Source: Candidatus Moranbacteria bacterium GW2011_GWC2_40_12
GTDB taxonomy: Bacteria > Patescibacteriota > Minisyncoccia > Moranbacterales > UBA11712
DNA: 64,000 nucleotides
Direction: 5' to 3'
Assembly: GCA_000995965.1 (NCBI GenBank)
Contig: LBYD01000001.1
Location: forward strand, 12,923 to 76,922
Positions 1 to 40,073 of the stretch are shown piece by piece (positions within the stretch are counted from its first letter, which is position 1; the number at the start of each line of letters is the position of its first letter). The notes below the pieces were generated by a model. That model was not told the origin of the DNA, did no database searches, and saw only the letters and a list, made by a program, of their open reading frames with translations. The translations under genes were made by a program, and so were the position numbers.

Positions 1-698
1 GCGCGCAAAAAAAGGGAAAAATCAAAATAAAAGTCCATAACCCGCGCGATTACGCGGCCGACAAACACAAGACGGTTGACGATACGCCGTATGGCGGGGG
101 TCCTGGCATGATCATGAAAGTGGAGCCGATTTATAAATGTCTCGAGAAAATAAAATCCGAAATCAAGAATTTTTCTAAGGTTCGGCCTTTCCCTTCCTCG
201 AGCAAAGCTCTCGGAATTCCTCAAGGCCAAACCTTAAAAAATTCCTCAAAGTCGAACTTTTTTGGAATTTCTCAAAGTCGAACTTTATTATTTTCCGCCA
301 AAGGGAAGGAATACACTCAAGCTGACGCGAAAAGGCTCGCGAAATATGAGAATATAATAATGATTTGCGGGCGATATGAAGGGGTTGACGAACGGGTCGC
401 GAAGCATCTGGCGGATGAAGAAATATCAATCGGAGATTATATATTAACGGGAGGTGAAATTCCCGCGATGGCTGTCGTTGATTCCGTCACGAGGTTATTG
501 CCGGAAGTTTTGGGGAACAAGGAATCGGCAACAAAAGAGTCATTTTCCAAAAAAGGATATCTGGAGCATCCGCAATATACCAGGCCGGCTGAATTTCATG
601 GGTGGAAAGTGCCGGAAGTTCTTCTTTCGGGAGACCACAAGGAGATTGAGGAATGGAGGAAAGAGAATGCAAAAATCAAAATGCAAAAATCAAAATGA
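1..698 (+). CDS. trmD: tRNA (guanine37-N1)-methyltransferase TrmD, 5'-partial (runs off window start)
   Basis: In-frame translation from nt 3 gives HNPRDYAADKHKTVDDTPYGGGPGM..., then CGRYEGVDERV and GDYILTGGEIPAM, which are canonical TrmD motifs. The ORF track lists only 108..698 because of the internal Met. It contains an in-frame tandem repeat insertion (see findings). Confidence 0.85.
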   Translation, partial: AQKKGKIKIKVHNPRDYAADKHKTVDDTPYGGGPGMIMKVEPIYKCLEKIKSEIKNFSKVRPFPSSSKALGIPQGQTLKNSSKSNFFGISQSRTLLFSAKGKEYTQADAKRLAKYENIIMICGRYEGVDERVAKHLADEEISIGDYILTGGEIPAMAVVDSVTRLLPEVLGNKESATKESFSKKGYLEHPQYTRPAEFHGWKVPEVLLSGDHKEIEEWRKENAKIKMQKSK

Positions 699-1934: not shown

Positions 1935-3044
1935 ATGAGAATTGTATTAACGGGCGGCGGAACGGGAGGACACATTTTTCCCATCATTGCCGTGGCACAG
2001 GAGCTTAGAAAACAGGCAGGGGAGAAGAATGATGTCGAATTTCTTTTTCTGGGACCGGACGGAGAATTGGAAAGGGAGGCTATGGAAAAAGAATTTGTCC
2101 CCATGAAAAAAATTCAATGCGGAAAGATGCGCCGGTATTTTTCGCCGCTTAATTTTCTCGATATTTTCAAAATTCCCGTAGGATTTTTCCAGTCTCTTTG
2201 GCATCTTCTGGTTTTTATGCCGGACGCGGTATTCGCAAAGGGCGGGTATGCCAGCATTCCGGTCGCCGCGGCTGCCTGGATATATCGAATTCCGATCCTG
2301 ATCCATGAATCAGACGTTGTACCGGGCTTGGCCAATCAACTGATGGCAAAAGTTGCCAAAAGAGTGGCTGCATCTTTTCCGGGATCAGAAAAATTTTTTC
2401 CTGAAAGCAAAGTTTTTTTGACTGGCAATCCAATCCGTGAAGAAATGATCCGGGATGATATGGCAGGGGGAAAGGAAAAATTTTCTCTCCAGCCTGAAAA
2501 AAAAACCATTTTGGTTATTGGCGGCAGCCAGGGATCCAGGGTTATTAATCAGGCCATCGTGACTTTGCTTCCAAAAATCCTCAAGAAATGGCAGCTTATT
2601 CATGTGACCGGAAAGAAAGAATTTGAAAGCGTTGTTTCTGAAGCGGGAAAACTGGGCATAAAAGCTGGCCGAGAAGGATATAAAGTCTTCCCGTTTCTCA
2701 CGAAGGAGCTCCCATATGCCTTCGCGGCGGCTGATTTGGTTGTGAGCCGGGCGGGAGCCGTTACGCTCACGGAAATCGCGGCAAACAAAAAGCCGGCGAT
2801 AATCATCCCCATCAAGGGGTCAGCCAATAAGCATCAGGAGCAAAACGCCTTTGTTTTTTCGCAAGCCGGAGCGGCGGTCGTGCTTGAGCAGGAAAATCTT
2901 GGTGAAAATATTTTGTATTCGAAAATTGATCAGATAATAGATGACAAAGGACTTGGATTTGAGTTGAGTGAAAGAGTGAAAAGATTCTATAATCCGGAAG
3001 CGGCAAGGTTGATTGCCGGAGAAATAGCTAAGATCGCAAGTTGA
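1935..3044 (+). CDS. murG: UDP-N-acetylglucosamine--N-acetylmuramyl-(pentapeptide) pyrophosphoryl-undecaprenol GlcNAc transferase MurG
   Basis: MRIVLTGGGTGGHIFP N-terminus and a GT28 fold. The ATG at 1935 is in frame with track ORF 1635..3044, whose 5' extension overlaps ftsW and was rejected. Confidence 0.9.
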   Translation: MRIVLTGGGTGGHIFPIIAVAQELRKQAGEKNDVEFLFLGPDGELEREAMEKEFVPMKKIQCGKMRRYFSPLNFLDIFKIPVGFFQSLWHLLVFMPDAVFAKGGYASIPVAAAAWIYRIPILIHESDVVPGLANQLMAKVAKRVAASFPGSEKFFPESKVFLTGNPIREEMIRDDMAGGKEKFSLQPEKKTILVIGGSQGSRVINQAIVTLLPKILKKWQLIHVTGKKEFESVVSEAGKLGIKAGREGYKVFPFLTKELPYAFAAADLVVSRAGAVTLTEIAANKKPAIIIPIKGSANKHQEQNAFVFSQAGAAVVLEQENLGENILYSKIDQIIDDKGLGFELSERVKRFYNPEAARLIAGEIAKIAS

Positions 3045-3046
3045 TT

Positions 3047-3088
3047 CTAAGGCTAAGCCTTGGCGGCTCTGCCAAGGCTTAGCCTTAG
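3047..3088. repeat. Family C perfect hairpin (CTAAGGCTAAGCCTTGGC-loop-GCCAAGGCTTAGCCTTAG); ends 9 nt before the patatin start codon
   Basis: 18-bp perfect inverted repeat with a 6-nt loop read directly from the sequence. Related copies are at 11986..12025 and 15329..15371. Confidence 0.8.
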
Positions 3089-3097
3089 AAAAATAAA

Positions 3098-4051
3098 ATG
3101 CAACGAAAGAAAATCGGTGTAGCCCTCGGCGGAGGAACAATGAGAGGGATGACCCACATCGGCGTTTTGGAGGTATTTGAGGAAAACAATCTCCCGATTC
3201 ATTTTCTTGTCGGCTGTTCAAGCGGGGCGATTGTCGCGGCCGCCTATGCATGCGGAAAATTGAAGGAACTCAAAGAAACGGCACTTCCTCTCAAAAACAA
3301 AGACCGCCGCAAAATGCTTGATTTGAGCTTTTCCGGCGGTGGCTTGATAAAAGGGGAACAATTGAGGTCCCTTTTTGATTTCTTGACCGATGGGAAAAAA
3401 TTTGAAGATATCAAAGGCTTGAAATTGGCTTTTGTGGGAACAGATGCCTTGACAGGAAACGAAGTCGTGATTGATTCCGGCAGCATTGCTGAAGCCCTTG
3501 AGATCACGACGGCTCTTCCTGGGCTTGCTCCGCTCAAGAGGCACCACGGGAGGCTGGTCTTTGATGGCGGGACAGCCATGCTTGTTCCAGCCAAAATTGC
3601 CTACAATTTTGGGGCGGAAGCTGTGATTGGGGTTGATGTGAGCGTAGGCAGAAGCGTTATCACTAGAACGGTAGGAGATTTCAGAAAAATGATGAGAAAA
3701 AGCACTTTGAGGCGGGTTTTGAATCCGGTTTTCAAAATGGGAGACAAGGCGTTGAATTCCAGCGAAGAAAAATTTTTCGGGAAAGTGCGGAATCTCATGA
3801 AAAAATTGAAACTGCTTGATGATTATGAAAAACATAAGTTCAATTTTTTCGAGGCTTATCTCATCGGTCTTCGAGCCATTAGCGCTGATTATAAAAAAGG
3901 CCTTTTCCTGGATGGCGACTGCGATATCGCGATTCGTCCGGACGTACTTCATTTCAAGCGCTCGGATATTTCCCAGACAAAAGAAATGATCGAAGAAGGA
4001 AGAAAGGCGGCAGAAAATATATTGGGAGAGATAAAAAAATTACTTTTGTAA
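3098..4051 (+). CDS. patatin-like phospholipase
   Basis: GGGTMRG oxyanion motif, GCSSG (GxSxG nucleophile) and a DGG catalytic Asp motif. Confidence 0.75.
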   Translation: MQRKKIGVALGGGTMRGMTHIGVLEVFEENNLPIHFLVGCSSGAIVAAAYACGKLKELKETALPLKNKDRRKMLDLSFSGGGLIKGEQLRSLFDFLTDGKKFEDIKGLKLAFVGTDALTGNEVVIDSGSIAEALEITTALPGLAPLKRHHGRLVFDGGTAMLVPAKIAYNFGAEAVIGVDVSVGRSVITRTVGDFRKMMRKSTLRRVLNPVFKMGDKALNSSEEKFFGKVRNLMKKLKLLDDYEKHKFNFFEAYLIGLRAISADYKKGLFLDGDCDIAIRPDVLHFKRSDISQTKEMIEEGRKAAENILGEIKKLLL

Positions 4052-4127
4052 TTTGCAATTGGTAATTTGAATTTGGATTTTTATTATTTCCTTATCCGAA
4101 TTACGGATTACTAATTACCAATTACGC
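4052..4127. repeat. Family B imperfect palindromic intergenic element (AATTGG/GAATTT-rich arms)
   Basis: aatttgcaattggtaatttgaatttgga ... tccgaattacggattactaattaccaatt, inverted arms. Family members are at 5511..5650, 7861..7975, 12397..12533 and 32172..32300. Confidence 0.6.
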
Positions 4128-5510
4128 ATGATAGATTTTTCAAAAGCGAAAAAAATATATTTTATCGGCATCAAGGGCTCTGGAATGGTGGCCCTGGTTG
4201 AAATTTTGCAGCGCCGGGGATGCCAGATTAGCGGGTCTGATACGGACGAAAAATTTTTCACGGACGATATTCTGAGGAAAAAACTGTTTGTGAAATTTCA
4301 CGAGGGATTTGACGCTGACCATATCACTGGCGACATTGACCTTGTCGTCTATTCCACGGCCTACAATGAAAAAAATAACGAAGAATGGAAAGCCGCGCGC
4401 TTCAAAAGGCTGCCGATGATTTCCTATCCCGAGCTCTTGGGGCTCCTTTTCAACGGCAAATACGGAATTGCGGTTTCAGGAACTCACGGGAAGACGACGA
4501 CTACGGCAATGCTCGCCGAAATTTTCAAGGCGTCCGGGTTTGATCCGACGGCTGTGGTGGGATCGCAAGTTCGCCAGTGGCGAAGTTCGGCTCTTGTCGG
4601 CCGGAGCGAGTTTATGATCATCGAAGCCGATGAATATCAGGGAAAATTCCGCTACTACAGCCCGCAGGCAGTCATTCTCACGAGTGTTGACTGGGACCAT
4701 CCGGACTTTTTTCCGACCTTTGAAGATTATAAAAAAACATTCGTTGAATTTGTCCAAAAAATTCCCCGCCATGGGTTTTTGGTAGTCTCGGGCGACCGGA
4801 GCGACACGCTTGAAATTGCCAAGGGCGCGAAATGCAATGTTTTGAAATATGGATTTGGGAAGGACAATGATCTGAAAATAAAAAACTATGAGATCGCGGG
4901 CGGAAAGCAAAATTTTGAGCTGGTATATGGCGGAAAAAACTTGGGGAAATTTGAGATTGAACTTCCCGGGCGCCACAACGCGCTGAATGCCGCGGCGGCT
5001 GTGGCAATGAGCTACAAATTCAACGCGGATATGAAAAAAGCGAAGGAGGCTCTGGCAAATTTTGAGGGAACAACGCGCCGATTTGAGTATATCGGCAAAC
5101 GAAACGGGGCGATTCTGATTGACGACTATGGCCATCATCCGGAAGAAGTGAAAGCCACTCTCAAGGCGGCGCGGGAATTTTTCCCCAAGCGCCGGATTTG
5201 GTGCGTTTTCCATCCCCATACTTTCACCCGGACAAAAGCCTTGCTTTCTGAATTTGCCCAAAGCTTTGAAGACGCGGACCGGGTGATTATTCTCGACATA
5301 TATGGCAGCGCGCGGGAAGTCCAGGGAGGAGTCCATTCAAAAGATTTGGTGGAACTCGCCAAAAAATACCACGTTAGTGTCGAATATATCCCGACGATTC
5401 CGGAAACGGTTGAATATCTCGCCGGCCAGATTGGCCGCGAGGACCTGGTCATCGCGATGGGAGCGGGAAATGTCTGGGAAGTAGCGGAGAAATTAGTATC
5501 TGAAATTTGA
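4128..5510 (+). CDS. murC: UDP-N-acetylmuramate--L-alanine ligase MurC
   Basis: IYFIGIKGSGM, GTHGKTTTTAML and the Mur ligase domain order. Confidence 0.9.
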   Translation: MIDFSKAKKIYFIGIKGSGMVALVEILQRRGCQISGSDTDEKFFTDDILRKKLFVKFHEGFDADHITGDIDLVVYSTAYNEKNNEEWKAARFKRLPMISYPELLGLLFNGKYGIAVSGTHGKTTTTAMLAEIFKASGFDPTAVVGSQVRQWRSSALVGRSEFMIIEADEYQGKFRYYSPQAVILTSVDWDHPDFFPTFEDYKKTFVEFVQKIPRHGFLVVSGDRSDTLEIAKGAKCNVLKYGFGKDNDLKIKNYEIAGGKQNFELVYGGKNLGKFEIELPGRHNALNAAAAVAMSYKFNADMKKAKEALANFEGTTRRFEYIGKRNGAILIDDYGHHPEEVKATLKAAREFFPKRRIWCVFHPHTFTRTKALLSEFAQSFEDADRVIILDIYGSAREVQGGVHSKDLVELAKKYHVSVEYIPTIPETVEYLAGQIGREDLVIAMGAGNVWEVAEKLVSEI

Positions 5511-5650
5511 AATTAGTTGGTGGAAATTAGAAATTTGTAATGGATAATTGAAATTGGGAATTGGTCCATTTTCTATTTTCCAGTTTCTATTACTATTTTC
5601 AATTTACCAAGAATCATTTTCTATTGAAATCTGAAAAATTAATACCAGAT
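5511..5650. repeat. Family B palindromic intergenic element
   Basis: gaaattagttggtggaaattagaaatttgtaatggataattgaaattgggaattgg ... ccagtttctattactattttcaatttacc, imperfect inverted arms. Confidence 0.55.
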
Positions 5651-6610
5651 ATGAACATTCAGGAGAACATCCCTTTGGCTCAATATACAACCCTGAAAGT
5701 CGGCGGGGCGGCGAGGTTTTTTTGTGAAGCAAAAAATGAAGAGGAAATTTCGGGAGCGGTGAAATTTGCCGAAGAAAAAAAACTGCCGGTTTTTGTGCTG
5801 GGCGGCGGAAGCAATATTTTGGTGAGCGACAAAGGGTTTGACGGAGTCGTTATACGACTCCGAAATTCGCAATTAGTAATTCGCAATTTGGATATTATTT
5901 GTCACGGTGGCTGCCAATTGAGTAAAGCCGTCAGTGAAAGCGTAAAAGCCGGCCTCACCGGCCTCGAGTGGGCGGCGGGGATTCCGGGAATGGTTGGGGG
6001 CGCGGTTTGGGGGAATGCGGGGGCGCCTTGGGGCTCGATGGCGGACTGTGTGGAATCTGTAAAAGTTTTGGATAAAAAAGATTTACGATTTAAGATTTAC
6101 GATTTAAAAAAATGCGATTTTGAATACAGAAACAGTATCTTTAAGCGAAATTCGAATTTGGTAATTTTATCTGTTAGCTTAAAGCTGAAAAAAGGCAAAA
6201 AAGAAGAAAGCGAAAAAAGAGTGAAAGAAATTTTGGCTCAAAGGAAAGAAAAGCAGCCCATGGATTTTCCTAGTTCGGGAAGCTTTTTTGCCAATCCCAC
6301 GATAAAAGATCAGAAAGTGATTAGTGAATTTGAAAGAGAAACGAATACGAAAGTAAAAGATAATAAAAATTTATACCAGAATTCCGGTTCGGAAGTAAAA
6401 ATACCCGCGGCTTATCTGATTGAAGAAGCCGGACTCAAGGGTAAAAAAATAGGCGGGGCGCAGGTGAGCGAAAAGCACGCAAATTTTCTGGTGAACGCGG
6501 GAAACGCGAAGGCGGAAGATTTCATCATCCTTGCCGCGGTCATCAAAACGCGCGTCCGAAACAAATTCGGCATCCAGCTCAGAGAAGAAGTGCAGATGGT
6601 GGGATTTTGA
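5651..6610 (+). CDS. murB: UDP-N-acetylenolpyruvoylglucosamine reductase MurB
   Basis: NIPLAQYTTLKVGGAARFF...VLGGGSNIL FAD-binding N-terminus and a MurB C-terminus. The start was chosen at ATG 5651, in frame with track ORF 5561..6610. It contains family A-like in-frame insertions. Confidence 0.85.
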   Translation: MNIQENIPLAQYTTLKVGGAARFFCEAKNEEEISGAVKFAEEKKLPVFVLGGGSNILVSDKGFDGVVIRLRNSQLVIRNLDIICHGGCQLSKAVSESVKAGLTGLEWAAGIPGMVGGAVWGNAGAPWGSMADCVESVKVLDKKDLRFKIYDLKKCDFEYRNSIFKRNSNLVILSVSLKLKKGKKEESEKRVKEILAQRKEKQPMDFPSSGSFFANPTIKDQKVISEFERETNTKVKDNKNLYQNSGSEVKIPAAYLIEEAGLKGKKIGGAQVSEKHANFLVNAGNAKAEDFIILAAVIKTRVRNKFGIQLREEVQMVGF

Positions 6611-6612
6611 AG

Positions 6613-6708
6613 TCATTACGAATTACTAATTCGCTTTGCTCTACGAATATACAAATTACGAATATTTTTGAATTTGTATATTCGTATAAGATTCGTAGTT
6701 CGTAAAGG
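6613..6708. repeat. Family A palindromic element (TACGAAT-type)
   Basis: cattacgaattactaattcgc...ctacgaatatacaaattacgaat / attcgtataagattcgtagttcgtaa. Left arms TTACGAAT x n, right arms ATTCGTA x n. Confidence 0.75.
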
Positions 6709-6737
6709 TTTACATTTTTCCAAAAAAAAATTATAAT
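6709..6737 (+). promoter_or_regulatory. sigma70-like promoter: TTTACA -N17- TATAAT, about 25 nt upstream of the DHS-like gene
   Basis: tttaca(6709-6714) + 17-nt spacer + tataat(6732-6737), read from the sequence. Confidence 0.5.
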
Positions 6738-6762
6738 TTAGAAGATATATTTTCTGAAAAAA

Positions 6763-7860
6763 ATGAAAGAAAAAAAATCTAAATTTAAAAAAATAGACGA
6801 AGCGTATGAGACAAAGCGCGATCTGAAGCATGACGGATTTTCCGATAACCTGAAACCGATTTCTTCGCTTGATTTGGGAAAAGCCGGGAACGTGGATGAG
6901 CTGGTGCGCGGAATGTCAAAGACCGCTTTCGGCGGAAGGAATCTCGGCGAAGCGGCGGATGTTCTCGAAGCGATGGTCCGTGACAAAGATTGCTTTGTCG
7001 TGCTGACGCTTTCCGGAGCAATGACGGTGGCAAAGATGGGCCTTTTGATTTGCGATATGATTGATCGCGGAATGGTGAACGCTGTTGTCTCAACAGGAGC
7101 GCTCATGACCCATGGCATGGTTGAGGGTTTTGGCATGAGCCACTTCAAGTATGACGAGGAAATGGACGATGAAAAACTTTACGCGTGCGGATATAACCGG
7201 GTTTATGACACGCTGGAACTTGAAAAAAATCTGGACGATCTGGAACTCATTGTATTCGAAGTTTTCAAAAGCCTGGATCATAAAAAAGTATATTCGAGCA
7301 ATGAAATCTTGAATGAAGTCGGAAAATATCTCCAAAAAAATACAGACAAAGAAAGAGCGATTCTCAAAAGCGCTTATGAAAAAAAAGTCCCGATATATAT
7401 TCCGGCCTTCACGGATTCTGAATTTTTTCTTGATATCGGGATCTTCAATCGGCGACAGAAACTTGAAAAGAAACCAATTCTGAACACAAGCGAATATCTG
7501 GACCTCGAACACTTCACGGAACTGATCAAAAAACAGAAAAAAATCGGTATTTTCACGATTGGCGGCGGTGTGCCGCGAAATTGGGCCCAGCAAGTGACAT
7601 GTTATCTCGACCTTATCGGGAAACGAGTGGGAGTCGGCGGAAAATTTTTGCGCTACAGTTATGGCGTCCGAATTTCCCCCGAGCCGGTGCACTGGGGCGG
7701 CCTCTCCGGATGCACGTATTCCGAAGGAGTGTCTTGGGGAAAAATGGTTCCTCCCAAAGAAGGCGGGCGCTTCGCCGAAGTTTATTGCGACGCGACGATC
7801 GCCTGGCCTATAATTTTGAAGGCGGTGATGGAACGGCTGGATAAAAAGTCTGGAAAATAG
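6763..7860 (+). CDS. deoxyhypusine synthase-like protein (DHS / homospermidine synthase family)
   Basis: CFVVLTLSGAMTVAKMGLL...MVNAVVSTGALMTHGMVEGFG, IGGGVPRNWAQQ and a C-terminal VYCDATIAWPIILKAV match the DHS family pattern. Confidence 0.75.
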   Translation: MKEKKSKFKKIDEAYETKRDLKHDGFSDNLKPISSLDLGKAGNVDELVRGMSKTAFGGRNLGEAADVLEAMVRDKDCFVVLTLSGAMTVAKMGLLICDMIDRGMVNAVVSTGALMTHGMVEGFGMSHFKYDEEMDDEKLYACGYNRVYDTLELEKNLDDLELIVFEVFKSLDHKKVYSSNEILNEVGKYLQKNTDKERAILKSAYEKKVPIYIPAFTDSEFFLDIGIFNRRQKLEKKPILNTSEYLDLEHFTELIKKQKKIGIFTIGGGVPRNWAQQVTCYLDLIGKRVGVGGKFLRYSYGVRISPEPVHWGGLSGCTYSEGVSWGKMVPPKEGGRFAEVYCDATIAWPIILKAVMERLDKKSGK

Positions 7861-7975
7861 TTGTATGAAGTTTGAAATTGGTAATGGAGAATAGAAAATT
7901 GAAATTCGTGACAATTTTCCAGTTTCAAATTTCCATTACAATTTTCCATTCTCTAAAAACAAATTTCAGATGATT
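7861..7975. repeat. Family B palindromic intergenic element
   Basis: gaaattggtaatggagaatagaaaattgaaattcgtgacaattttccagtttcaaatttccattacaattttccattctc, a long imperfect inverted repeat. Confidence 0.65.
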
Positions 7976-8022
7976 ACACAGTAAATATCTCAATCTTGAC
8001 ATGCAAAATAATATTCAGATTT

Positions 8023-8910
8023 ATGGATAAAAATCTTTACGAACAATGGCCGTTTAATTTTGGTTCGATCCATGAACAGGATTTTGAAAAGGCGAAAATT
8101 GTGATCGCGCAGATTCCCTATGACGCGACGAGCTCTTATGGAACCGGACAGCGAAACGGGCCCTTCGCGATCCTCAATGCGTCGCGCTATGTTGATGAGC
8201 TTTTGGACGCGCACGAAGGAAAATTGATCGGCCTCGAGCCAACTGACGTTTTCACGCTGGATGAAATTGTTGTTTCGCGAAACAGCGTTCCGGAAGCGAT
8301 GGCCGGAATTGAACAGGCAATCGAAAAAGAAATAGTTTCAAAAAACAAAAAACCGCTTGTTCTCGGCGGAGAGCATTCTATCACTTTTGGCGTCGTGAAA
8401 GCGCTCAAGAAAAAATACAAAGATTTATCGGTTTTGCAATTCGACGCGCATACGGATCTTTTGAACGAATATGAGGGCAGTAAACACTCCCACGCCTCGG
8501 TGATGCGGCGTATCCTTGATGAGGGAATTTCTTGTGCCCAAGTGGGAATCCGGAACATGAACGCGGAAGTTCAGGATTATATTTCGACGAACAAAAAACA
8601 CGCCAAAAATATCCATTTCGCGCCCGGAATCCCGCCGGTCGAAAATATTTTGAAAGGCCTCACAAAAAATGTTTATCTCACTTTTGATCTCGACGTTCTT
8701 GATCCGTCCATCATGCCGGCGGTCGGGACAGCCGAGCCGGGAGGGTTATACTGGAACGAAACAGTTGAGGCGATTGAAAAAATAAGCCAGAAAGTGAATA
8801 TCGTCGGCGCGGACGTGGTGGAACTTTGCCCGATTCCCGGCCTTGAAGCGCCAAATTTCTTGGCGGCGAAGCTGGTATATGAAATAATCAAAGCCATCTT
8901 GGCAAAATAA
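8023..8910 (+). CDS. speB: agmatinase / ureohydrolase family (arginase fold)
   Basis: GGEHSITFGVV, QFDAHTDL and TFDLDVLDPS Mn-binding motifs. The start was placed at ATG 8023, in frame with track ORF 7996..8910. Confidence 0.8.
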   Translation: MDKNLYEQWPFNFGSIHEQDFEKAKIVIAQIPYDATSSYGTGQRNGPFAILNASRYVDELLDAHEGKLIGLEPTDVFTLDEIVVSRNSVPEAMAGIEQAIEKEIVSKNKKPLVLGGEHSITFGVVKALKKKYKDLSVLQFDAHTDLLNEYEGSKHSHASVMRRILDEGISCAQVGIRNMNAEVQDYISTNKKHAKNIHFAPGIPPVENILKGLTKNVYLTFDLDVLDPSIMPAVGTAEPGGLYWNETVEAIEKISQKVNIVGADVVELCPIPGLEAPNFLAAKLVYEIIKAILAK

Positions 8911-8919
8911 CACAACCTG

Positions 8920-9504
8920 ATGGCGAGCAAAAATTTTGGAAAAGAATATTTTCGTTCCGGTTCGTATGAAGACTATAAAAAAGAAGCCGAACGGTGGGTG
9001 CCAAAAACTGCCCGGAAAATAAATAAAATTATCAGCAATAAACCGGCGAAGATCTTGGATGTCGGGTGCGCGCATGGGTACTTGATTGCCGAGCTCCAGA
9101 ATAAACATGGACATAGCGTGCGAGGGGTTGATTATTCGCCGTATGCCGTCAAAAATTCAGAAAAATCCGTTCGGGGAAAAATAAAGAGAGGAAATATTCA
9201 AAAACTAAATTTTCGGAAAAATGAGTTTGATGCCGTGATTTGTTTGGATGTAATAAATTACCTGGAAGAAAATAATATCCCAAAAGCCATTCAAAATCTG
9301 GCGGGAGTCTCGAAGAAATACATTTTTTTTGGCGCGATATTCAAGCATTCCTGGACGGCGAGCCAAAAATGGAATCCGGACAAGTTTCGGAAAAGCGTCC
9401 TCGCGAAAAAAGAATACATTGAAATTTTCAAGAAATACGGAGCAAAGTTTGCGGAAAGTTTCGATGGGGAAAATGGAGGTTCAATACTAGTGCTAAAGAA
9501 GTAA
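8920..9504 (+). CDS. class I SAM-dependent methyltransferase
   Basis: ILDVGCAHGYL (motif I), then VICLDVINYL. Lies 10 nt after the agmatinase stop. Confidence 0.7.
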   Translation: MASKNFGKEYFRSGSYEDYKKEAERWVPKTARKINKIISNKPAKILDVGCAHGYLIAELQNKHGHSVRGVDYSPYAVKNSEKSVRGKIKRGNIQKLNFRKNEFDAVICLDVINYLEENNIPKAIQNLAGVSKKYIFFGAIFKHSWTASQKWNPDKFRKSVLAKKEYIEIFKKYGAKFAESFDGENGGSILVLKK

Positions 9505-9522
9505 ATTTTGAAGATAACATAA

Positions 9523-10818
9523 ATGGCAAACGGCAACGGAGCGAAAAATTTCCTTTTTGTTTCCTGGATCGCCCTCAACGGCGATTTGGCCTGGAAAGTA
9601 AAAAAAGAAAACCATAACGTCAAATACTATATCGACGACAAAGAAGAAGCGGATGTCTATGACGGCCTTTTGGAAAAAGTGGACAAGTGGCGGGATCATA
9701 TCGGCTGGGCGGACGTGATTATTTTTGATGATACCGGATTCGGAGAAGAAGCGGAAAAACTCCGGAAAAAGGGGAAACTGGTTATCGGCGGGACGGTATA
9801 TACTGACCGGACGGAAGAAGACCGGGAATTCGGGCAGGGAGAAATGAAAAAATTCGGGATGAACATCCTGCCGAATTATAATTTCTCAAGCTTTGACGAA
9901 GCCATCGAATTTTTGAAAAAAAATCCCGGCCGCTATGTTTTCAAGCCCAATGGCAAGGCGGCGGATGAAAAAAATCTTCTTTTTATCGGTGAAGAGGACG
10001 ACGGGAAGGATATGATTGAAATTCTTGAAGACAACAAAGATTTTCTTTCCGGAAAAATTGAAAGTTTTCAGCTTCAAAAATTCGTAGCCGGGGTGGAGAT
10101 TGCGACTGGAGCCTTTTTCAACGGAAAAAAATTCGTCCATCCGATAAACATAAATTTTGAGCACAAAAGGCTTTTTCCGGGCGATCAGGGGCCTTTCACG
10201 GGCGATATGGGAGCGCTGATGTATTGGACGACTCCCAACGCGATCTATAACAATACTCTTCTTAAAATGGAAAGCGTGCTGGCTGAGCATGGCTATGTCG
10301 GCTACTATGACATAAACTGCATCGTGAACGGGCGGGGAATATACCCGCTCGAATTCACGGCCCGTTTCGGATATCCGACCATCAGCACGCAGGTGGAAGG
10401 AATCATCGAGCCGATGGGAGAGTTTCTTTTGAAATTGGCGCGGGGCGAAGATTTTGAAATCAAGACGAAAAGAGGCTTTCAAATCGGCGTGGTTTTGGCG
10501 GTTCCTCCTTATCCTTTCTTTAGCGAAGAAATATTTTCTGTCTATAAGGGATCTTCTATTCTGTTCAAAAACGAAGCGGCGATGGAAGGCATCAATTGGG
10601 GGGACGTGAAAATGACGGACGGAGTTTTGAAGTTGGCGGGGTCGTCCGGATACGCGCTCATTGTCACCGGTTCGGGAATCACGGTGGAGGACGCCCGGCG
10701 CCAAGCCTATAACCGGATAAAGAACATCCGGCTCCACGACATGTTTTTTCGCGTGGATATCGGCACAAGATGGTTTCAGGACAGCGATAAACTGCAGTCG
10801 TGGGGATACATACAATAA
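9523..10818 (+). CDS. PurD-like ATP-grasp ligase (phosphoribosylamine--glycine ligase homolog)
   Basis: Segments alignable to E. coli PurD: FEHKRLFPGDQGPFTGDMGALMYWT (PurD [21 protein letters not shown]), YPLEFTARFGYPT (EFNCRFGDPE), and a C-terminal ...EDARRQAYNRIKNIRLHDMFFRVDIG (...AEAQKRAY...CRKDIG). Confidence 0.7.
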   Translation: MANGNGAKNFLFVSWIALNGDLAWKVKKENHNVKYYIDDKEEADVYDGLLEKVDKWRDHIGWADVIIFDDTGFGEEAEKLRKKGKLVIGGTVYTDRTEEDREFGQGEMKKFGMNILPNYNFSSFDEAIEFLKKNPGRYVFKPNGKAADEKNLLFIGEEDDGKDMIEILEDNKDFLSGKIESFQLQKFVAGVEIATGAFFNGKKFVHPININFEHKRLFPGDQGPFTGDMGALMYWTTPNAIYNNTLLKMESVLAEHGYVGYYDINCIVNGRGIYPLEFTARFGYPTISTQVEGIIEPMGEFLLKLARGEDFEIKTKRGFQIGVVLAVPPYPFFSEEIFSVYKGSSILFKNEAAMEGINWGDVKMTDGVLKLAGSSGYALIVTGSGITVEDARRQAYNRIKNIRLHDMFFRVDIGTRWFQDSDKLQSWGYIQ

Positions 10819-10876
10819 ATGAAAAATTAAAAATTATTGTGTCGCGGAGCGACTTTACTATTAATACATTGAGAAT

Positions 10877-11395
10877 ATGATGCAAAATGTTCAAGTGTTG
10901 AAAATTACAAGAACTAAAGAAATAATTTTTTCTGCCGTTTTTACGGCGTTAGCGATTTATGCGCCGATGGTTGTCCATCACTTCGCGGGCGTGGACGGCG
11001 GGCGGAAATTTTTGCCGATGCCTTTTTTTGTTTTGCTCGCGGGGCTGACTCTCGGCTGGCGGGCGGGGATTGCAGCCGGACTCGCGAGCCCGGTTATAAG
11101 CTTCCTTCTTTCCGGAATGCCGATGCTCAATATTTTGCCGATTATTATCATACAGCTCTCCGCTTACGGTTTTTTGGCGGGGATATTGAAAGAAAAGTTC
11201 AACGGATTCATAGCACCTGCTGGCGCGATAGTTCTTGGCCTTATTTTGACCGGTTTTGCGGTTTTTTTATTTTCAGAAATGAATGCCGCGGCGTATGTTA
11301 TAAATGCCGTAAGGGATGGCTGGGTTGGAATTGCTCTCCAACTTCTTATTTTGCCGATTATTATAAAGTTTTCTAGAGATTATTTATTCGACTAA
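10877..11395 (+). CDS. small polytopic membrane protein (ECF-transporter S-component-like?)
   Basis: 172 aa with 5-6 predicted TM helices. The family assignment is tentative. Confidence 0.35.
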   Translation: MMQNVQVLKITRTKEIIFSAVFTALAIYAPMVVHHFAGVDGGRKFLPMPFFVLLAGLTLGWRAGIAAGLASPVISFLLSGMPMLNILPIIIIQLSAYGFLAGILKEKFNGFIAPAGAIVLGLILTGFAVFLFSEMNAAAYVINAVRDGWVGIALQLLILPIIIKFSRDYLFD

Positions 11396-11447
11396 TTTTC
11401 AGGGTAGTCATTTTTATCTACGTGGATATAACTGACTACTTTTAATT

Positions 11448-11849
11448 ATGACTGTAAAATATAATCTCGAATACTTTTTTGAGAAATCCTGGTCTTTTGT
11501 TTTGATGAAAAACGGGAAAATCGTTTTCAAGTCAAAAGCGCAGCATCTCAAGCCTTTGATATTTTGCATCAAAAGACATAAAAAAGAAATGCGCGGGGCG
11601 GTTGTTTTTGATAAGATTATCGGACAAGCGGCGGCGATATTTCTTGTTTATGCCAAAGTTAAAGAAGTTTGGACACCAACCATCAGCCGGTCTGGAAAAG
11701 CCTGTCTTGAGAAGCATAATGTGAAAATTGACTACAAAAATCTCGTCAGTTGCATAAAGAACCGCAAAGGCGATGATCTCTGCCCGATGGAAAAAATGAG
11801 CCGAAAAATGACAAAAAAAGAGTTTATTGAAAAAAAATTGGAAAATTAG
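11448..11849 (+). CDS. hypothetical protein (133 aa)
   Basis: ORF with no recognisable motif. Confidence 0.4.
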   Translation: MTVKYNLEYFFEKSWSFVLMKNGKIVFKSKAQHLKPLIFCIKRHKKEMRGAVVFDKIIGQAAAIFLVYAKVKEVWTPTISRSGKACLEKHNVKIDYKNLVSCIKNRKGDDLCPMEKMSRKMTKKEFIEKKLEN

Positions 11850-11905
11850 TCAAAATTAACATTATACAAGCCAAAAAATAGCTTACAAAAAACCGCTTTT
11901 CGGGC

Positions 11906-11934
11906 TTGATTTTTTACTGAAAATTTGCTATTAT
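11906..11934 (+). promoter_or_regulatory. sigma70-like promoter: TTGATT -N17- TATTAT
   Basis: Read from the sequence. Lies upstream of the family C hairpin and the 12028 gene. Confidence 0.45.
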
Positions 11935-11985
11935 ACAATAGTGGAAAAAGATGCGAAATAAACACAAAATTTGCCTTGTAGCTGT

Positions 11986-12025
11986 CTAAGGCTAAGCCTT
12001 AGCAGTTTCTGAGGCTTAGCCTTAG
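11986..12025. repeat. Family C hairpin (CTAAGGCTAAGCCTTAG ... GAGGCTTAGCCTTAG); ends 2 nt before the ATG at 12028
   Basis: Inverted repeat read from the sequence. Confidence 0.75.
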
Positions 12026-12027
12026 AA

Positions 12028-12396
12028 ATGACAGTCCGAACCTACCTTTGGGGAATGCGCCTCAGCACTCTTGCGGCGTTGGCCGCCTTGGGGGCAGTTC
12101 TATATTATGTTGATCCTGTCCGGGATGGAATTCTGGGAAGAGTGCTTTTCTATGTAAGCTTATTTTTCTCAATTACGGGAATGGCCACTCTTTTTTTATT
12201 TTGGGTCCGAAGACGATGGAATGTGAATGAAGTGGTCTACCAAAATGTCGGATTGAGTTTCCGCCAGGGAATGCTCGTGGCTTTCGCTGTTTGCGGAATG
12301 TTTGCCCTTCAAAGTTTCCGGCTTCTTGTCTGGTGGGACGCGGGGATAGTGATTGCGGGAATTCTGCTAATTGAATTGTGGTTTTTATCTAGATAA
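12028..12396 (+). CDS. small membrane protein (122 aa, about 4 TM)
   Basis: Hydrophobic ORF. Confidence 0.4.
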   Translation: MTVRTYLWGMRLSTLAALAALGAVLYYVDPVRDGILGRVLFYVSLFFSITGMATLFLFWVRRRWNVNEVVYQNVGLSFRQGMLVAFAVCGMFALQSFRLLVWWDAGIVIAGILLIELWFLSR

Positions 12397-14573
<2,177 letters not shown>

Positions 14574-14750
14574 TCCACTAGAAAATTCGGTTTCCAATTG
14601 AGAGATTTCATTGAAAAATGGCCATTTCAAGGCTTTTTTTTGTTGTGCTAAGTTCGACTATTGACTAAATTCCTAAAATATGCTAACATTACAAGTTGTC
14701 AATGAAGCCTTATTGGCAATGTTCCTAAAAATCAATTGGAGGTGCGAGAT

Positions 14751-15114
14751 GAAACAAGAACATCTCGAAAATTTACTTTGTCCGTCGTCAGTTTCACTCA
14801 TTGGGGATTTGAAAGGTTTTTGCGAAGATTTACGCAAAGCTTTGAAATCCGAAAAGCAGCGCGAAGACCTGGAAGCTCTCGGTATTGTGTATACCGAACC
14901 GGAGTGCCTGGAAGAGGACTGGGATGACCAGACAACGACCATGGCATCATATTGCTTCAATGATTTCTGGACTTATCCCGAAATTTTTGAGGATATGCTG
15001 GAGCTTCTGGATAGCTACAGATGGGGTGACCATGAATTTTACAGGTTGCCTTATCCTGGCCGGGACATTCTATTTGTTACCGAATATGGCGGACCGAAGT
15101 TGCTTTCGCTGTAA
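14751..15114 (+). CDS. acidic hypothetical protein (121 aa)
   Basis: A GGAGGTG Shine-Dalgarno sits 6 nt upstream of ATG 14751. The protein is Glu/Asp-rich. Local GC is clearly higher than the flanks. Confidence 0.45.
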
Positions 15115-15328
15115 GAAATACCTCGTGAAGAAAATTTGTTCTTTGATTTAGAAAAGGATAGTTTAGAACATAGCTCGAATGGATTTAAAAATCACGATTA
15201 TTACTTTACCGTCACTATGCTTAGAGGCGGTCTTTTTTTTGCCCGTTTGACACAATTTAATTCGTATTATAAGATATGAGCAGATAAAAAAGCCCCAAAG
15301 GCTTTTTAAAAAAGGCTCAACAGGGAAT

Positions 15329-15371
15329 CCTGAGACTAAGTCTTGGGAATTTCCCAAGACTTAGTCTCAGG
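15329..15371. repeat. Family C-like perfect 20-bp hairpin (CCTGAGACTAAGTCTTGGGA-attt-TCCCAAGACTTAGTCTCAGG); ends 5 nt before the secE ATG
   Basis: Perfect inverted repeat read from the sequence. Confidence 0.85.
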
Positions 15372-15376
15372 AAACA

Positions 15377-15562: not shown

Positions 15563-15651
15563 ATTTACGAATTACGAATCTCTTACGAATATACGAATAA
15601 AATTCGTAATTAGTATATTCGTAGAGCGAAGCGTATTCGTAATTCGTAATA
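15563..15651. repeat. Family A palindromic element between secE and nusG
   Basis: gatttacgaattacgaatctcttacgaatatacgaat ... attcgtaattagtatattcgtagagcgaagcgtattcgtaattcgtaa. Confidence 0.8.
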
Positions 15652-15656
15652 AGTTC

Positions 15657-16202: not shown

Positions 16203-16204
16203 AT

Positions 16205-16306
16205 AACTCGCGAATTAAGTAGCGAATCGAAAGCGAATATGAGCGAACTTTCTAAAATGATTAGCTCTAAATTTGCGATTAATTAGCTATTCATTAGCGA
16301 GTAGTT
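16205..16306. repeat. Family A variant inverted repeat (AGCGAAT-type) in the nusG-rplK spacer
   Basis: ctcgcgaattaagtagcgaatcgaaagcgaatatgagcgaac ... gcgattaattagctattcattagcgagtag. Confidence 0.45.
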
Positions 16307-16309
16307 ATT

Positions 16310-16732: not shown

Positions 16733-16736
16733 TAAT

Positions 16737-16865
16737 TTTACGAATTACGAATCTCTTACGAATATACGAATCAAAAAATATTCGTAATCAGTACATTCGC
16801 AGAGTGAAGCGCCCGCCTGCAACGCTTTGCGCAGCAATGCGGGCAGGTATTCGTAATTCGTAAAG
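16737..16865. repeat. Family A palindromic element between rplK and rplA, carrying a nested 36-nt mini-element (16812..16847)
   Basis: The first 33 nt are identical to the 15563 copy (tacgaattacgaatctcttacgaatatacgaat). The right arm is interrupted by cccgcctgcaacgctttgcgcagcaatgcgggcagg. Confidence 0.8.
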
Positions 16866-16872
16866 AGATATC

Positions 16873-17872: not shown

Positions 17873-18586
17873 GTGAAGCTGAAATTATGTTTTGATTCCA
17901 AGTCGGCGCGGGAAAATCCAAGCATAAGCCAAACAGCTTCAAAATATGGCGATTAGCATCAATTTAGTGGTTGCTAATTGCTGGTCTGTATCGTTCGCAC
18001 TCAAATGCGAGCGATGCAATTGCGATAGAGCGGTATTCATGAAGGGCGTATGGTGGATGCCTTGACTCAAGTGAGCGATGAAGGACGTAGCGATCTGCGA
18101 TAAGCCTCGGGGAGCTGATGAGCAAGCTTTGATCCGGGGATTTCCGAATGCGGCAACGCATCTCGATTCATATCGGGATATTACTGTCTGAATTCATAGG
18201 ACAGTGAAGCGTACCCAGGGAACTGAAACATCTTAGTACCTGGAGGAAAATAAATCCAAAAGATTCCGTCAGTAGTGGCGAGCGAAAGCGGAGAAGCCTA
18301 AACCGTTTCACTTCGGTGAAGCGGGGTTGCGAGATAATAACGTCCTATCTTGTAAAACGTTGAATATAGTTGTCAGCGTTTTACTCGACGGGAGTGAAGT
18401 TACAAATTGTTTTGTTAGCTGAACAATTCTGGAAAGTGAGACCAAAGAGGGTAATAGTCCCGTAAGCGAAAACGAAACAACTTTATTGTTATTATTCTCA
18501 AGTAAGGCGGGACCGGAGAAATCCCGTCTGAAGCCGGGGCCACTATAGCTCCAAGGCTAAATATCACTTGAGATCGATAGCGAACT

Positions 18587-18617
<31 letters not shown>

Positions 18618-20242: not shown

Positions 20243-20527
20243 TGAGGACATTTGCAAAAGTGACCTCAAGGACTGGAACGATTATAGTGAAAGTGTGAAA
20301 ATCTAGTTGAAGAGTTCAAAAAAAATGAGACACAAAATAGCTGCTTCATTCTGCAGCAATGCAGAATTGGTCCTAAAATACATGGCTATATGCTGGGAAG
20401 TCCCGACTCGTCGGGATGATCAGCAGGGAAGGCCCCGACACAAGTCGGGGAACCCTCAGATACCATACGCCGTGCCCCCGGCATAATGTCGGGGAGAAGA
20501 TATGGTACATCGCCCAAAGGAGCGATC
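20243..20527 (+). mobile_element. ORF-less intron-like insertion in 23S at the E. coli ~1917 site (CTAAGGT | AGCGAAATTCC)
   Basis: The exon sequence is interrupted by about 285 nt. The insertion contains GNRA-type hairpins (ccccgacacaagtcgggg, ccccggcataatgtcgggg). Confidence 0.5.
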
Positions 20528-20549
20528 AGCGAAATTCCTTGTCAGGTAA

Positions 20550-21914: not shown

Positions 21915-21972
<58 letters not shown>

Positions 21973-22015
21973 TGGCTGTTCGCCAATTAAAGCGGTACGC
22001 GAGCTGGGTTCAACG

Positions 22016-23269: not shown

Positions 23270-23385
23270 TTGTTCCTAGTGCTTCTAGCGACAGGGTCAC
23301 ACCCGATCCCATCCCGAACTCGGCAGTTAAGCCTGTCAGCGCCGATGGTAGCCGCAAGGTGAGAGTAGGCCAGTGCTAGGAACAA
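23270..23385 (+). rRNA. rrf: 5S ribosomal RNA
   Basis: CCCGATCCCATCCCGAACTCGGCAGTTAAGC...GCCGATGGTAGC core. The termini ttgttcctag / ctaggaacaa pair as helix I. 116 nt. Confidence 0.8.
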
Positions 23386-25164: not shown

Positions 25165-25172
25165 AGTTTCCT

Positions 25173-25264: not shown

Positions 25265-25265
25265 A

Positions 25266-32300: not shown

Positions 32301-34219
32301 ACATCTTTCTTGTGTTAAAACACAAATACAAGCTCGCCGCTATTTTTATCTGCCTTTTATTTTTCTTTTTGGCGCTTTTCTCAAGCGCCGGTTTTTCGCG
32401 GAAAAACATGAAATACTCCGGAAACGGCATTCTGGCGGACGAGATTCCCCATATCGCCGGCGGCTACTACTATCTCAAAACAAATCGCTATTATATCAAT
32501 CCTGAACACCCTCCTCTCGTAAAAGACATCGCGGGTCTGGGAGAGCTTCTCATCAGTCCAAAACTTCCAAATATCACAAACCAAACGGAACTGCCGGCAG
32601 ATTTTCATCGTGCCGAATATCCATTCGTTGGCGCTCAGTTTCCAAAAGCTCTCGAGTGGCAGAACAATCAGGATCATTTCGGGACGATGTTTCTTTACCA
32701 GCCGCAAAATAATCCGGACAAAATCGCTTTTTTTGCGCGGCTGGCTGTTATTCTTGCCAATACGCTCTTATTATATTCATTATTTTATCTTCTCGCGGAA
32801 ATATGGTCCGAAAGAGCGGCGCTACTCGGGCTATTCTTCTTCTCTGTTTCCCAATTCAGCATCGCCCACGGATCGTTTGTTGTGATAGATTTCATGTCGG
32901 CGCTTCTCACGGGCATTGCGATCGCCGCCTTGGCGATTTATCTCAAAAGATACGCGGATGGCAGTCACGCCTCGAGATACTTCTTCATCACTTCGCTTTT
33001 TTTTGCGCTGGCGCTTCTTGCGAAATTTTCTTCCGTCGTTCTTCTTCCCGCCGCATTTTTCGGCGGGCTAATTCATGTAATCTTTACAAAGGTCCGGCTT
33101 TCCCGGGAGGATCGAACCATATTTGCGGCAAAATATATTTTTTCCTATGCGGCGATTGTGATTCTCGCGCTGTTTTTCATTTCCGCGTTCTATGTTTTTC
33201 ATACCTACAAGATGGAAAATGAAATTCTGGTCCAGAAGCTCCATGAAAACTATCCCGAAGAAAATCTGCCCGCCTTGGGGCATAGAATTCTCGAGCTGAT
33301 GGTCTATCTTAATCCTTTCACAAAGGGCCTGGCGGCGTATATAAACGGGGCTTTTATGGTTGTCAGCCGGATGGTTGTTTCCGCACAGAACACCTATTTT
33401 CTCGGCCATGTCTTCGGCAATGAAGGAGCCGGCTGGAAATATTGGCCCGTGCTATATTTCACAAAACTGTCGCTCGGGCTGCATTTTTTCACACTGCTGG
33501 TTATGTCACTGATTTTTTTCGGCCTGTTCAAGAAAAAAAGAAAAATAAAGCAAAAATTGGCGGGTTTTATTTCCAATCCGCTCTCAGTGTTACTGCTAGT
33601 CTTCATAATGGCCTACATGGCCGTCACACTCCACTCGACTTTTCAAATTGGTCTTCGGCACATAATGCCCGTCATTCTGGCCGCCTCGCTTTTGACTGGA
33701 AAAGGTGCCAATTCTTTTTGGGAGTTTTCATTTTTAAGGCCGAACCTTAAAAATTTGAGAAGGTTTGACCTTAGGTTGAAACATTTATTTTTCGCCGTCG
33801 CGGTGCTCATGCTTTTCTCCGTTTTTTGCTCATTTCCGTATTATCTTGAATACTACAATATCTTGGGCGGGGGAACGGACAAAGGGTATAAAGTTGCGAC
33901 TGATTCCAATTATGACTGGGGGGGATCGGATGTGCGGCGGCTCGCCAAGTGGACGCGGGATAACAACGTCAAGGAAATTTATACTCAAATGTTCGCGGAT
34001 GTGCCTTTGAAATACTATCTCGGCGACGGGCAGAAATATTTCAATTTGCAGGACGAGGGACATCTGCCGCCCTCCGGGTCGTATCTGGCTGTTTCAGTTT
34101 TTGAATATATGAACAATCTTTATTCCTGGTATATCCCGCCGGAGCGAAAATACACGATTCTCAAGGACAATCTTGTGGCGAGAGTTGGGAAGACAATATT
34201 CGTGTATCGCATCCCCTGA
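32270..34219 (+). CDS. GT-C fold glycosyltransferase, family 39/PMT-like (polyprenyl-phosphate-sugar dependent). Start uncertain (alternative GTG at 32312)
   Basis: DEIPHIAGGYYYL...NPEHPPLVKDIAG in the first loop (PMT/ArnT DE...EHPPL motif). About 12 TM. Confidence 0.7.
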   Translation: MPFFILRFQFYIFLVLKHKYKLAAIFICLLFFFLALFSSAGFSRKNMKYSGNGILADEIPHIAGGYYYLKTNRYYINPEHPPLVKDIAGLGELLISPKLPNITNQTELPADFHRAEYPFVGAQFPKALEWQNNQDHFGTMFLYQPQNNPDKIAFFARLAVILANTLLLYSLFYLLAEIWSERAALLGLFFFSVSQFSIAHGSFVVIDFMSALLTGIAIAALAIYLKRYADGSHASRYFFITSLFFALALLAKFSSVVLLPAAFFGGLIHVIFTKVRLSREDRTIFAAKYIFSYAAIVILALFFISAFYVFHTYKMENEILVQKLHENYPEENLPALGHRILELMVYLNPFTKGLAAYINGAFMVVSRMVVSAQNTYFLGHVFGNEGAGWKYWPVLYFTKLSLGLHFFTLLVMSLIFFGLFKKKRKIKQKLAGFISNPLSVLLLVFIMAYMAVTLHSTFQIGLRHIMPVILAASLLTGKGANSFWEFSFLRPNLKNLRRFDLRLKHLFFAVAVLMLFSVFCSFPYYLEYYNILGGGTDKGYKVATDSNYDWGGSDVRRLAKWTRDNNVKEIYTQMFADVPLKYYLGDGQKYFNLQDEGHLPPSGSYLAVSVFEYMNNLYSWYIPPERKYTILKDNLVARVGKTIFVYRIP

Positions 34220-40066: not shown

Positions 40067-40073
40067 TTATTAT

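Follow-up and report, generated by a model that had tools for sequence, protein, structure and literature searches.

Hairpins abutting start codons in a Moranbacteria genome as likely copies of a REP/REPIN-like mobile palindrome

Why do three long, perfect hairpins stand immediately before start codons in a segment of the genome of Candidatus Moranbacteria bacterium GW2011_GWC2_40_12? The segment concerned, called here the window, is the whole stretch of DNA that was analyzed: 64,000 nucleotides (nt) of contig LBYD01000001.1 (positions 12,923 to 76,922 of the forward strand). A first-pass annotation of the window had observed that the three starts lack a Shine-Dalgarno (SD) sequence, and had proposed that the hairpins could act in translational control or as standby sites. 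The three hairpins, named H1, H2 and H3, belong to a sequence family designated family C. They are interpreted here, with good though not full confidence, as copies of a dispersed mobile palindrome similar to the repetitive extragenic palindromes (REP) and their inverted doublets (REPIN), associated with a cognate enzyme similar to the REP-associated tyrosine transposases (RAYT). The palindrome was probably moved by an IS200/RAYT-like transposase, and the hairpins look like selfish DNA lodged in the free space before starts, not like purpose-built translation switches.

The coordinates of the hairpins and of other features of the window are collected in Table 1. H1, H2 and H3 are the longest three GC-moderate perfect hairpins of the window, and the earlier claim that they abut start codons was confirmed, with stems of 18–22 base pairs (bp) located 1–7 nt before the ATG. 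H1 occupies the whole spacer between murG and a patatin gene: it begins 1 nt past the murG stop codon (3042–3044), and the patatin ATG (3098) lies 7 nt beyond its end, or 9 nt if counted from the CTTAG core. The ATG at 12028, which starts a gene for a membrane protein of 122 amino acids (aa), lies 1 nt past the stem of H2, and its AUG is enclosed by an outer helix of 4–5 bp (GCUGU/ACAGU). The secE ATG (15377) lies 4 nt past the stem of H3. The RNA folding energies of H1, H2 and H3 were −38.2, −32.7 and −39.5 kcal/mol (z = −8.4, −5.6 and −9.2, respectively), and H1 scored 63.8 bits with the covariance model R1. The differences between H3 and H1 are matched by compensatory changes in the opposite arm. 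The 13-mer core of family C had nine matches in the window versus 0.59 expected from shuffles, and 0 of 100 shuffles reached nine. The identities of MurG, patatin and SecE were confirmed with Pfam, while the product of the 12028 gene had no Pfam match. The placing of H2 inside a 5′ leader, downstream of a promoter-like site, was also borne out, and H3 likewise lies downstream of such a site.

Concerning the architecture of the element, the family-C palindrome word is CTAAGGCTAAGCC. Each arm is a 17-nt near-palindrome (CTAAGGC-TAA-GCCTTAG), and two inverted arms give the hairpin of 18–22 bp. The 17-nt arm was also found alone, as a monomer, at 3850–3880 and 347–377 of L001 and on both sides of a gene of L054 (L numbers designate the loci or contigs compared with the window). 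Among 30 aligned family-C copies, 95.8% of the stem cells were paired. Two stem positions switch jointly from G-C to A-U in 11 of the 30 sequences, with no pair broken; since those four bases pair within each arm too, the switch distinguishes two subfamilies, GG and GA, and does not amount to many independent compensations. Loci unrelated to one another share the loop GGGACGCTCCC, either as such or as its reverse complement, and loop orientation with respect to the downstream gene was unbiased (ACGCT in five cases, AGCGT in four). Nor was there any wobble bias of the sense strand, as U.G cells and 'other' cells were eight each at the two outer pairs, the latter being read as C.A and not counted directly. 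So, the wobble and loop counts give no indication that selection acts on the sense RNA.

The palindrome of 40–46 nt (CTAAGRCTAAGYCTT...) is present in about 45 other contigs of the Candidate Phyla Radiation (CPR). When the pattern CTAAGYCTT-N4-30-RAGRCTTAGYCTYAG was scanned over GTDB genomes and JGI metagenomes, 13 loci were obtained in the former and 38 in contigs of the latter, nearly all of them in Moranbacteria-, Parcubacteria- or Uhrbacteria-type contigs. Recurrence of the family-C core CTAAGRCTAAGYC was limited to CPR-type contigs in both scans. The source genome did not appear in either of them, and L023 is a 2.5 kb contig that is 99.96% identical to the window.

As to position relative to genes, at about 23 distinct loci the ATG of a long open reading frame (ORF) lies 1–17 nt past a family-C hairpin, and about 13 of these loci also have the preceding stop codon, in the same direction, within −6 to +12 nt. 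The genes downstream are housekeeping genes unrelated to one another: rplC (four genomes), rplK, secE, atpG, atpF, rsmH, pth, rbfA (after infB), a gmhB-like gene, a GT2 glycosyltransferase gene and others. The first-pass annotation had raised the question of whether such hairpins would, genome-wide, be indifferent to starts or be followed by U-tracts; what was found is a start bias that recurs at the 23 or so loci, without U-tracts.

About one quarter of the distinct family-C loci are intragenic, and at no fewer than eight loci, two degenerate window copies included, the palindrome is in frame inside a gene. In LeuRS, the hairpin coincides exactly with an insertion of 14 aa (SKAKPSGLLRLSLR) in the alignment to 1h3n; further in-frame hosts are MetRS, RsmI (three contigs), Lgt, a MiaB-like gene and a PMT_2-like gene. 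The degenerate window copy within the PMT_2-like ORF matched R1 with 31.3 bits (E = 2e-5). The window from 33599 to 34206 aligns with L018 2742–3349 (reverse orientation, 73% identity), and the L018 copy at 3175–3213 corresponds to approximately 33735–33773 by coordinate mapping, not by aligning both copies. The composite palindrome in trmD matched R1 with 29.4 bits, and in the comparison of TrmD with the solved TrmD 8byh, 41 query residues face 5 residues of the chain, the gap amounting to about 36 aa. Within trmD (168–290) the composite palindrome is followed by a tandem duplication (CTCAAAGTCGAACTTT twice), and the two jointly account for the approximately 36 aa added to TrmD. A near-twin of the composite element is found at L011 6364–6440, just past the LeuRS stop codon.

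The link to a transposase comes from relatives. A Y1_Tnp (IS200-like) gene lies beside or around hairpins in L001, in L009/L022/L044/L047 and in L034, and a search for homologues of this Y1 protein gave 3,210 matches, mostly in Parcubacteria-group CPR, several of them with the JGI annotation 'REP element-mobilizing transposase RayT'. Seven independent Y1 genes were read at the DNA level (L001, L047/L009, L034, L054, L055, L057 and L058). In every case, the hypervariable position between DYxRFL and LVEIICYCLNPNHYH was occupied by an in-frame palindrome, and a copy of that palindrome was found 0–18 nt from the start and/or stop of the gene. In L054 the palindromes are those of family C, with a monomer 7 nt before the ATG, another 2 nt after the stop codon and a full dimer inside the gene (67.5 bits); this in-gene copy (42 nt) is identical to the in-frame rsmI copies of L026 and L035. 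In L057, a LytR gene at a distance of 10 kb also contains the cognate palindrome in frame. The variable segment of the Y1 protein ranges from 26 to 97 aa over 120 homologues, displays mirror peptides (ELSSEASELSS, GSLASTMEAKLP, KAKPSEFLRLSLR) and forms a helical hairpin in the AlphaFold model.

The Y1 protein scored above the Pfam cut-off for Y1_Tnp (PF01797). Its sole NCBIfam match was the model for REP-associated tyrosine transposases, NF047646, with 35.6 and 24.2 bits, which is under the cut-off of 80; the protein is thus a distant relative of that RAYT, not an equivalog. Residues H94, H96 and Y154, that is, the HUH motif and the catalytic Tyr, were invariant in 37 homologues. The best PDB match of the AlphaFold model (predicted local distance difference test score, pLDDT, of 91) was 4er8, a RAYT-REP hairpin complex (E = 4.9e-6), which ranked ahead of the IS608 and ISDra2 TnpA structures in the fold search, while sequence-only PDB searches with the Y1 protein and with a 37-sequence profile gave no match. 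In L058, a bAvd-like gene and a reverse transcriptase gene (RVT_1) precede the RAYT-like gene by about 0.5 kb (8288–9561), a combination that suggests a diversity-generating retroelement.

Concerning the starts themselves, an SD core at −20..−4 was present in 4 of the 39 ATG genes of the window, compared to 14% of random 17-mers, and the fraction of A at −12..−1 before starts was 0.48 versus 0.29 genome-wide. The first-pass observation of A-rich spacers without SD is therefore true for H1, H2 and H3, but it is not special to them: since SD-lessness is genome-wide, the missing SD of these genes is not specific. In the first 17.5 kb of the window nearly every co-directional spacer of at least 50 nt holds a long hairpin, which begins 0–5 nt after the stop codon and mostly ends 0–17 nt before the next ATG. 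Most of these junction hairpins belong not to family C but to other word-repeat families (TACGAAT or GAATTG based), and at the corresponding junctions the relatives hold different hairpin families.

Orthologous sites in relatives differ in their content. The secE site, filled by H3 in the window, is empty in L053 and L058 and carries a different long hairpin family in L052; in L053 and L058 the secE ATG comes about 16–20 nt after a conserved small upstream hairpin. The H2 site, in the leader of the 122-aa gene, is filled in L028 and empty in L052, where a similar promoter-like site (TTGTCA-17-TAGAAT) is nevertheless found. Family C occupies the nusG-rplK spacer in L032; in the window, as in L052 and L053, this spacer holds other families. 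The small hairpin that the window has between the promoter-like site and secE is conserved in L052, L053 and L058, so it predates the insertion of family C; it may function as a bidirectional terminator or as an attenuator. The conservation of H1 in L049 was considered as a sign of selection and rejected, as the surrounding 350 nt are 100% identical. The comparison of L049 with the window (2785–5501) is a mosaic, with 100% identity over at least 350 nt around H1 and 87% over the whole 2.7 kb, which suggests recombination between related populations.

It seems reasonable to interpret that a CPR clade of Y1 HUH transposases would copy and mobilize the palindrome, acting on single-stranded DNA. 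The nearest solved relative of this clade is the E. coli REP-associated tyrosine transposase. The copies would persist solely at harmless sites, namely the spacers at ORF boundaries and, in frame, tolerant loops of proteins. In a genome of SD-less starts and A-rich leaders, such sites would include the 1–17 nt directly before the ATG, which would be free space because there is no SD there. That hairpins abut start codons would then follow from the survival of copies at harmless sites only, and the same free space could explain the occurrence of two palindrome families in the same interval of 12–16 nt upstream of secE. Once transcribed, the copies must form very stable RNA hairpins without U-tract. 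Whatever influence these may have on initiation, or on the stability or processing of the RNA, would be secondary.

Several observations go against this mobile-palindrome interpretation, or at least against its simplest form. Neither a target-site duplication nor a direct repeat was seen at the element edges in comparisons of filled and empty sites, and no conserved 5′ tetranucleotide (GTAG/CGTC) was seen at the hairpin foot, where the flanks are variable T/C runs. A tblastn search of the window yielded no Y1 gene; for the source genome, the link to an enzyme therefore depends on relatives. The copy number looks low compared to classical REPs, as there are three intact and two degenerate copies in the window and two strict matches per GTDB metagenome-assembled genome (MAG); classical REPs run to hundreds of copies. 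At the six independent loci with long upstream spacers (H2, H3, rplC, gmhB-like, atpF and GT2), the hairpin is in all six cases next to the start, and neutral parking does not fully explain this. At orthologous sites the arms have remained near-perfect although the flanking genes have diverged by about 25% (H2 in the window compared to L028), and at the rplC and rsmI sites one ortholog has the GG subtype where another has GA; to explain both facts, one must invoke concerted replacement or selection on pairing. In addition, the outer helix around the AUG of H2 keeps its pairing via a compensatory change of U-A to A-U. These points leave room for insertion targeting, for concerted replacement or for secondary co-option of the copies as RNA elements. 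A more ambitious version is rather speculative: an undescribed CPR system of the REPIN-RAYT kind, in which the transposase gene would keep an in-frame master palindrome in its hypervariable loop and dispersed copies would have been recruited as start-adjacent hairpins that set the processing or initiation of SD-less mRNAs. Such recruitment is hinted at by the AUG-enclosing helix of H2, with its compensatory change, and by the six long-spacer loci.

Other explanations have to be weighed against a mobile origin. The one closest to the first-pass proposal is that of a host-selected translation element, in which the stem 5′ of an SD-less AUG would be an operator, a standby site or an insulator. 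The start-proximal bias speaks for it, both at the 23 or so loci and at the long spacers, and so do the pairing kept around the H2 AUG and the persistence of H2 in L028 (3 substitutions and 1 indel, with flanks about 76% identical); furthermore, a 20-bp stem at −2 to −45 would be expected to affect 30S loading. However, SD-lessness and A-rich spacers are found genome-wide, orthologous sites are empty or bear unrelated hairpins, both orientations are seen without sense-strand wobble bias, cognate copies flank transposase genes of the RAYT-like type, and the palindrome is in frame within LeuRS, MetRS, RsmI, Lgt, TrmD and other genes. A translational role thus found no specific support, and we regard it as unlikely. 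A co-opted determinant of mRNA processing or stability, also named as an alternative in the first-pass annotation, whereby RNase III cleavage or an exonuclease block would uncouple cistrons or stabilize the upstream message in the way documented elsewhere for REPs and Correia elements, is doubtful as the explanation of the hairpins, but a processing effect is possible as a side effect compatible with the mobile origin. Perfect stems of 18–22 bp devoid of U-tract would be appropriate for it, stop-to-start spacers in operons are filled by the other window hairpin families too, and there is a precedent in the RNase III cleavage of Correia-containing transcripts (PMC10969869). On the other hand, conservation between loci and between genomes extends from the structure to the sequence itself, a constraint that RNase III does not impose; cleavage at in-frame intragenic copies would be harmful; and the empty orthologous sites mean that the element is dispensable.

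Two further alternatives are far less probable. The hairpins could be intrinsic terminators of the upstream genes, possibly of a type without U-tract, as H1 lies 1 nt past the murG stop codon and many copies lie 0–12 nt after stops. However, no T-run was found 3′ of H1, H2 or H3 on either strand, and the family-C flanks are rich in T at 5′ and in A at 3′ on both strands, a polarity contrary to that of a terminator, from which it follows that H1–H3 are not intrinsic terminators; the first-pass opinion that H2 does not act as a terminator stands for the same reason. Moreover, a terminator scan of the window flagged none of the three, while canonical terminators are present elsewhere (e.g., 23410–23435 and 31299–31327), H2 and H3 are in leaders downstream of promoters, and some copies are within ORFs. 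The terminator reading was excluded as contradicted by the sequence, and its probability is close to nil. The remaining alternative considers the DNA itself, with the two tandem 17-bp palindromes (CTAAGGCTnAGCCTTAG), 22–25 bp apart, acting as an operator for a dimeric regulator and defining a regulon. This is in keeping with the near-perfect palindromy of each arm, the low copy number and the vicinity of copies to promoters and starts. It is nevertheless very improbable, because the neighbouring genes are functionally unrelated, copies occur within coding sequences and between co-transcribed cistrons, the centre-to-centre spacing is variable and the arm palindrome is often broken (TTGG, TTCG) though inter-arm pairing is kept. 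An Rfam scan of the window returned only 23S and 5S rRNA, with no match at the hairpins.

Compared to known systems, the likely mobile palindrome resembles most closely the REP/REPIN-RAYT systems of E. coli and Pseudomonas (PMC3116915, PMC5581495, PMC6006769), in which a short palindromic unit also forms inverted doublets with a longer hairpin. REPINs are inverted REP doublets that almost always flank RAYT genes (PMC5581495, PMC3116915). In family C, too, copies are dispersed in intergenic and intra-operon spacers, cognate copies lie beside a Y1 HUH transposase gene (of family C in L054; also in L055, L047, L001, L034, L057 and L058), and the predicted Y1 fold is closest to 4er8. Differences are the CPR/Patescibacteria host, the lack of a GTAG or CGTC tag, the short distance of only 1–12 nt between units, the apparently low copy number, the many copies in frame in genes, the constant presence of a cognate palindrome in frame in the Y1 gene, and the 24–36 bits of the CPR Y1 protein versus the NCBIfam cut-off of 80 for RAYT equivalogs. 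Another likeness is that to the Rickettsia palindromic elements (RPE), which are in-frame palindromes in unrelated essential genes of a reduced genome and add a short peptide (PMC10969869). By their description, however, RPEs are about 100–150 bp long with no cognate transposase known, whereas family-C-type units are of 40–77 bp and linked to a Y1 enzyme, and most family-C copies are at ORF boundaries in a CPR host. The Correia/NEMIS elements of Neisseria, which are miniature inverted-repeat transposable elements, are similarly located mostly immediately upstream of genes, are co-transcribed with them, and their hairpins act on mRNA through RNase III (PMC10969869); yet they are of 100–200 bp, with terminal inverted repeats, TA duplication, internal promoters and integration host factor (IHF) sites, none of which was seen in family C. 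As in IS200/IS605, the Y1 gene is bracketed by subterminal hairpins near its start and stop, but family-C hairpins are also dispersed far from any transposase gene, and the Y1 protein appears, by its model, structurally nearer to RAYT than to the TnpA of IS608. So, it can be said that family C acts like REP/REPIN with RAYT and enters genes like RPEs, being a strict member of neither group. No description of such palindromic elements in CPR was found in the literature searched.

Table 1. Hairpins, degenerate palindromes and promoter-like sites of the window (positions numbered from its first letter)
Feature	Position	Strand	Description
H1	3045..3090	.	TTCTAAGGCTAAGCCTTGGC-ggctct-GCCAAGGCTTAGCCTTAGAA; 20-bp perfect arms, 6-nt loop
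H2	11985..12026	.	18-bp stem, one U.G on + strand; leader of 122-aa membrane-protein gene
H3	15328..15372	.	22-bp perfect arms; GA subtype; upstream of secE
Promoter-like site	11906..11934	+	TTGATT-17-TATTAT; upstream of H2
Promoter-like site	15247..15275	+	TTGACA-17-TAAGAT; upstream of H3
Small hairpin	15286-15307		AAAAAGCC-CCAA-AGGCTTTTT with A- and T-runs; between promoter-like site and secE
Composite palindrome	168..244	+	outer family-C-like arms TTTTTCTAAGGTTCGGCCTT / AAGGCCAAACCTTAAAAAA plus inner hairpin; in frame in trmD
Degenerate family-C-like copy	33727..33781	+	TTTTTAAGGCCGAACCTTAAAAA...GAAGGTTTGACCTTAGG; in frame in PMT_2-like ORF 32270-34219
Other long intergenic hairpin	4052-4127		TACGAAT/ATTCGTA, GAATTG or other family
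Other long intergenic hairpin	6611-6762		TACGAAT/ATTCGTA, GAATTG or other family
Other long intergenic hairpin	7861-7995		TACGAAT/ATTCGTA, GAATTG or other family
Other long intergenic hairpin	11396-11447		TACGAAT/ATTCGTA, GAATTG or other family
Other long intergenic hairpin	12397-12533		TACGAAT/ATTCGTA, GAATTG or other family
Other long intergenic hairpin	15563-15656		TACGAAT/ATTCGTA, GAATTG or other family
Other long intergenic hairpin	16203-16309		TACGAAT/ATTCGTA, GAATTG or other family
Other long intergenic hairpin	16733-16872		TACGAAT/ATTCGTA, GAATTG or other family
Other long intergenic hairpin	25165-25265		TACGAAT/ATTCGTA, GAATTG or other family

Some other features of the window and of its relatives are worth recording. 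The patatin-like phospholipase gene (3098–4051) is placed within the dcw cluster, in the order ftsW, murG, patatin, murC and murB, and is bracketed by palindromes, with H1 upstream and the 4052–4127 hairpin downstream. The closest homologues of the window NusG are from Moranbacteria and Patescibacteria. The spacer between rpsJ and rplC (S10-L3), of 100–200 nt, is structured and conserved in L004, L020 and L021; it contains a stem and then TTTTTT just upstream of the family-C hairpin, and may be a ribosomal-protein leader or attenuator. In L021, an extra GC-rich palindrome (GTCATCCTGAGCGAAGCGAAGGATCC...) is inserted in this spacer. The 23S rRNA gene (18030–22065), directly after rplA, spans 4,036 nt versus 2,925 nt of the Rfam model, being about 1.1 kb longer, and contains the ORF of a LAGLIDADG endonuclease (20762–21226). 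A second LAGLIDADG ORF (22210–22677) lies in the interval between 23S and 5S, the latter at 23275–23381; no 16S rRNA gene and no tRNA gene were found in the 64 kb. From 36000 to 56000 the GC content is 0.37–0.40 versus 0.43–0.47 elsewhere, and the genes are tight and often overlapping, with no junction hairpins; this part may be a distinct gene island.

If the interpretation of H1, H2 and H3 as REP/REPIN-like mobile palindromes is true, the REP/REPIN-RAYT association would be extended to the Candidate Phyla Radiation, and the invasion of essential genes by palindromes, of the type seen in Rickettsia, would have occurred in a second, independent group of reduced genomes. In the annotation of CPR MAGs, core enzymes should be expected to bear palindrome-encoded insertions of 14–36 aa, and a long hairpin at an operon junction is not to be taken for a terminator or a riboswitch-like leader. 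The most unusual feature is the presence of an in-frame cognate palindrome in every Y1 gene sampled, which could bear on substrate recognition or regulation by such enzymes.

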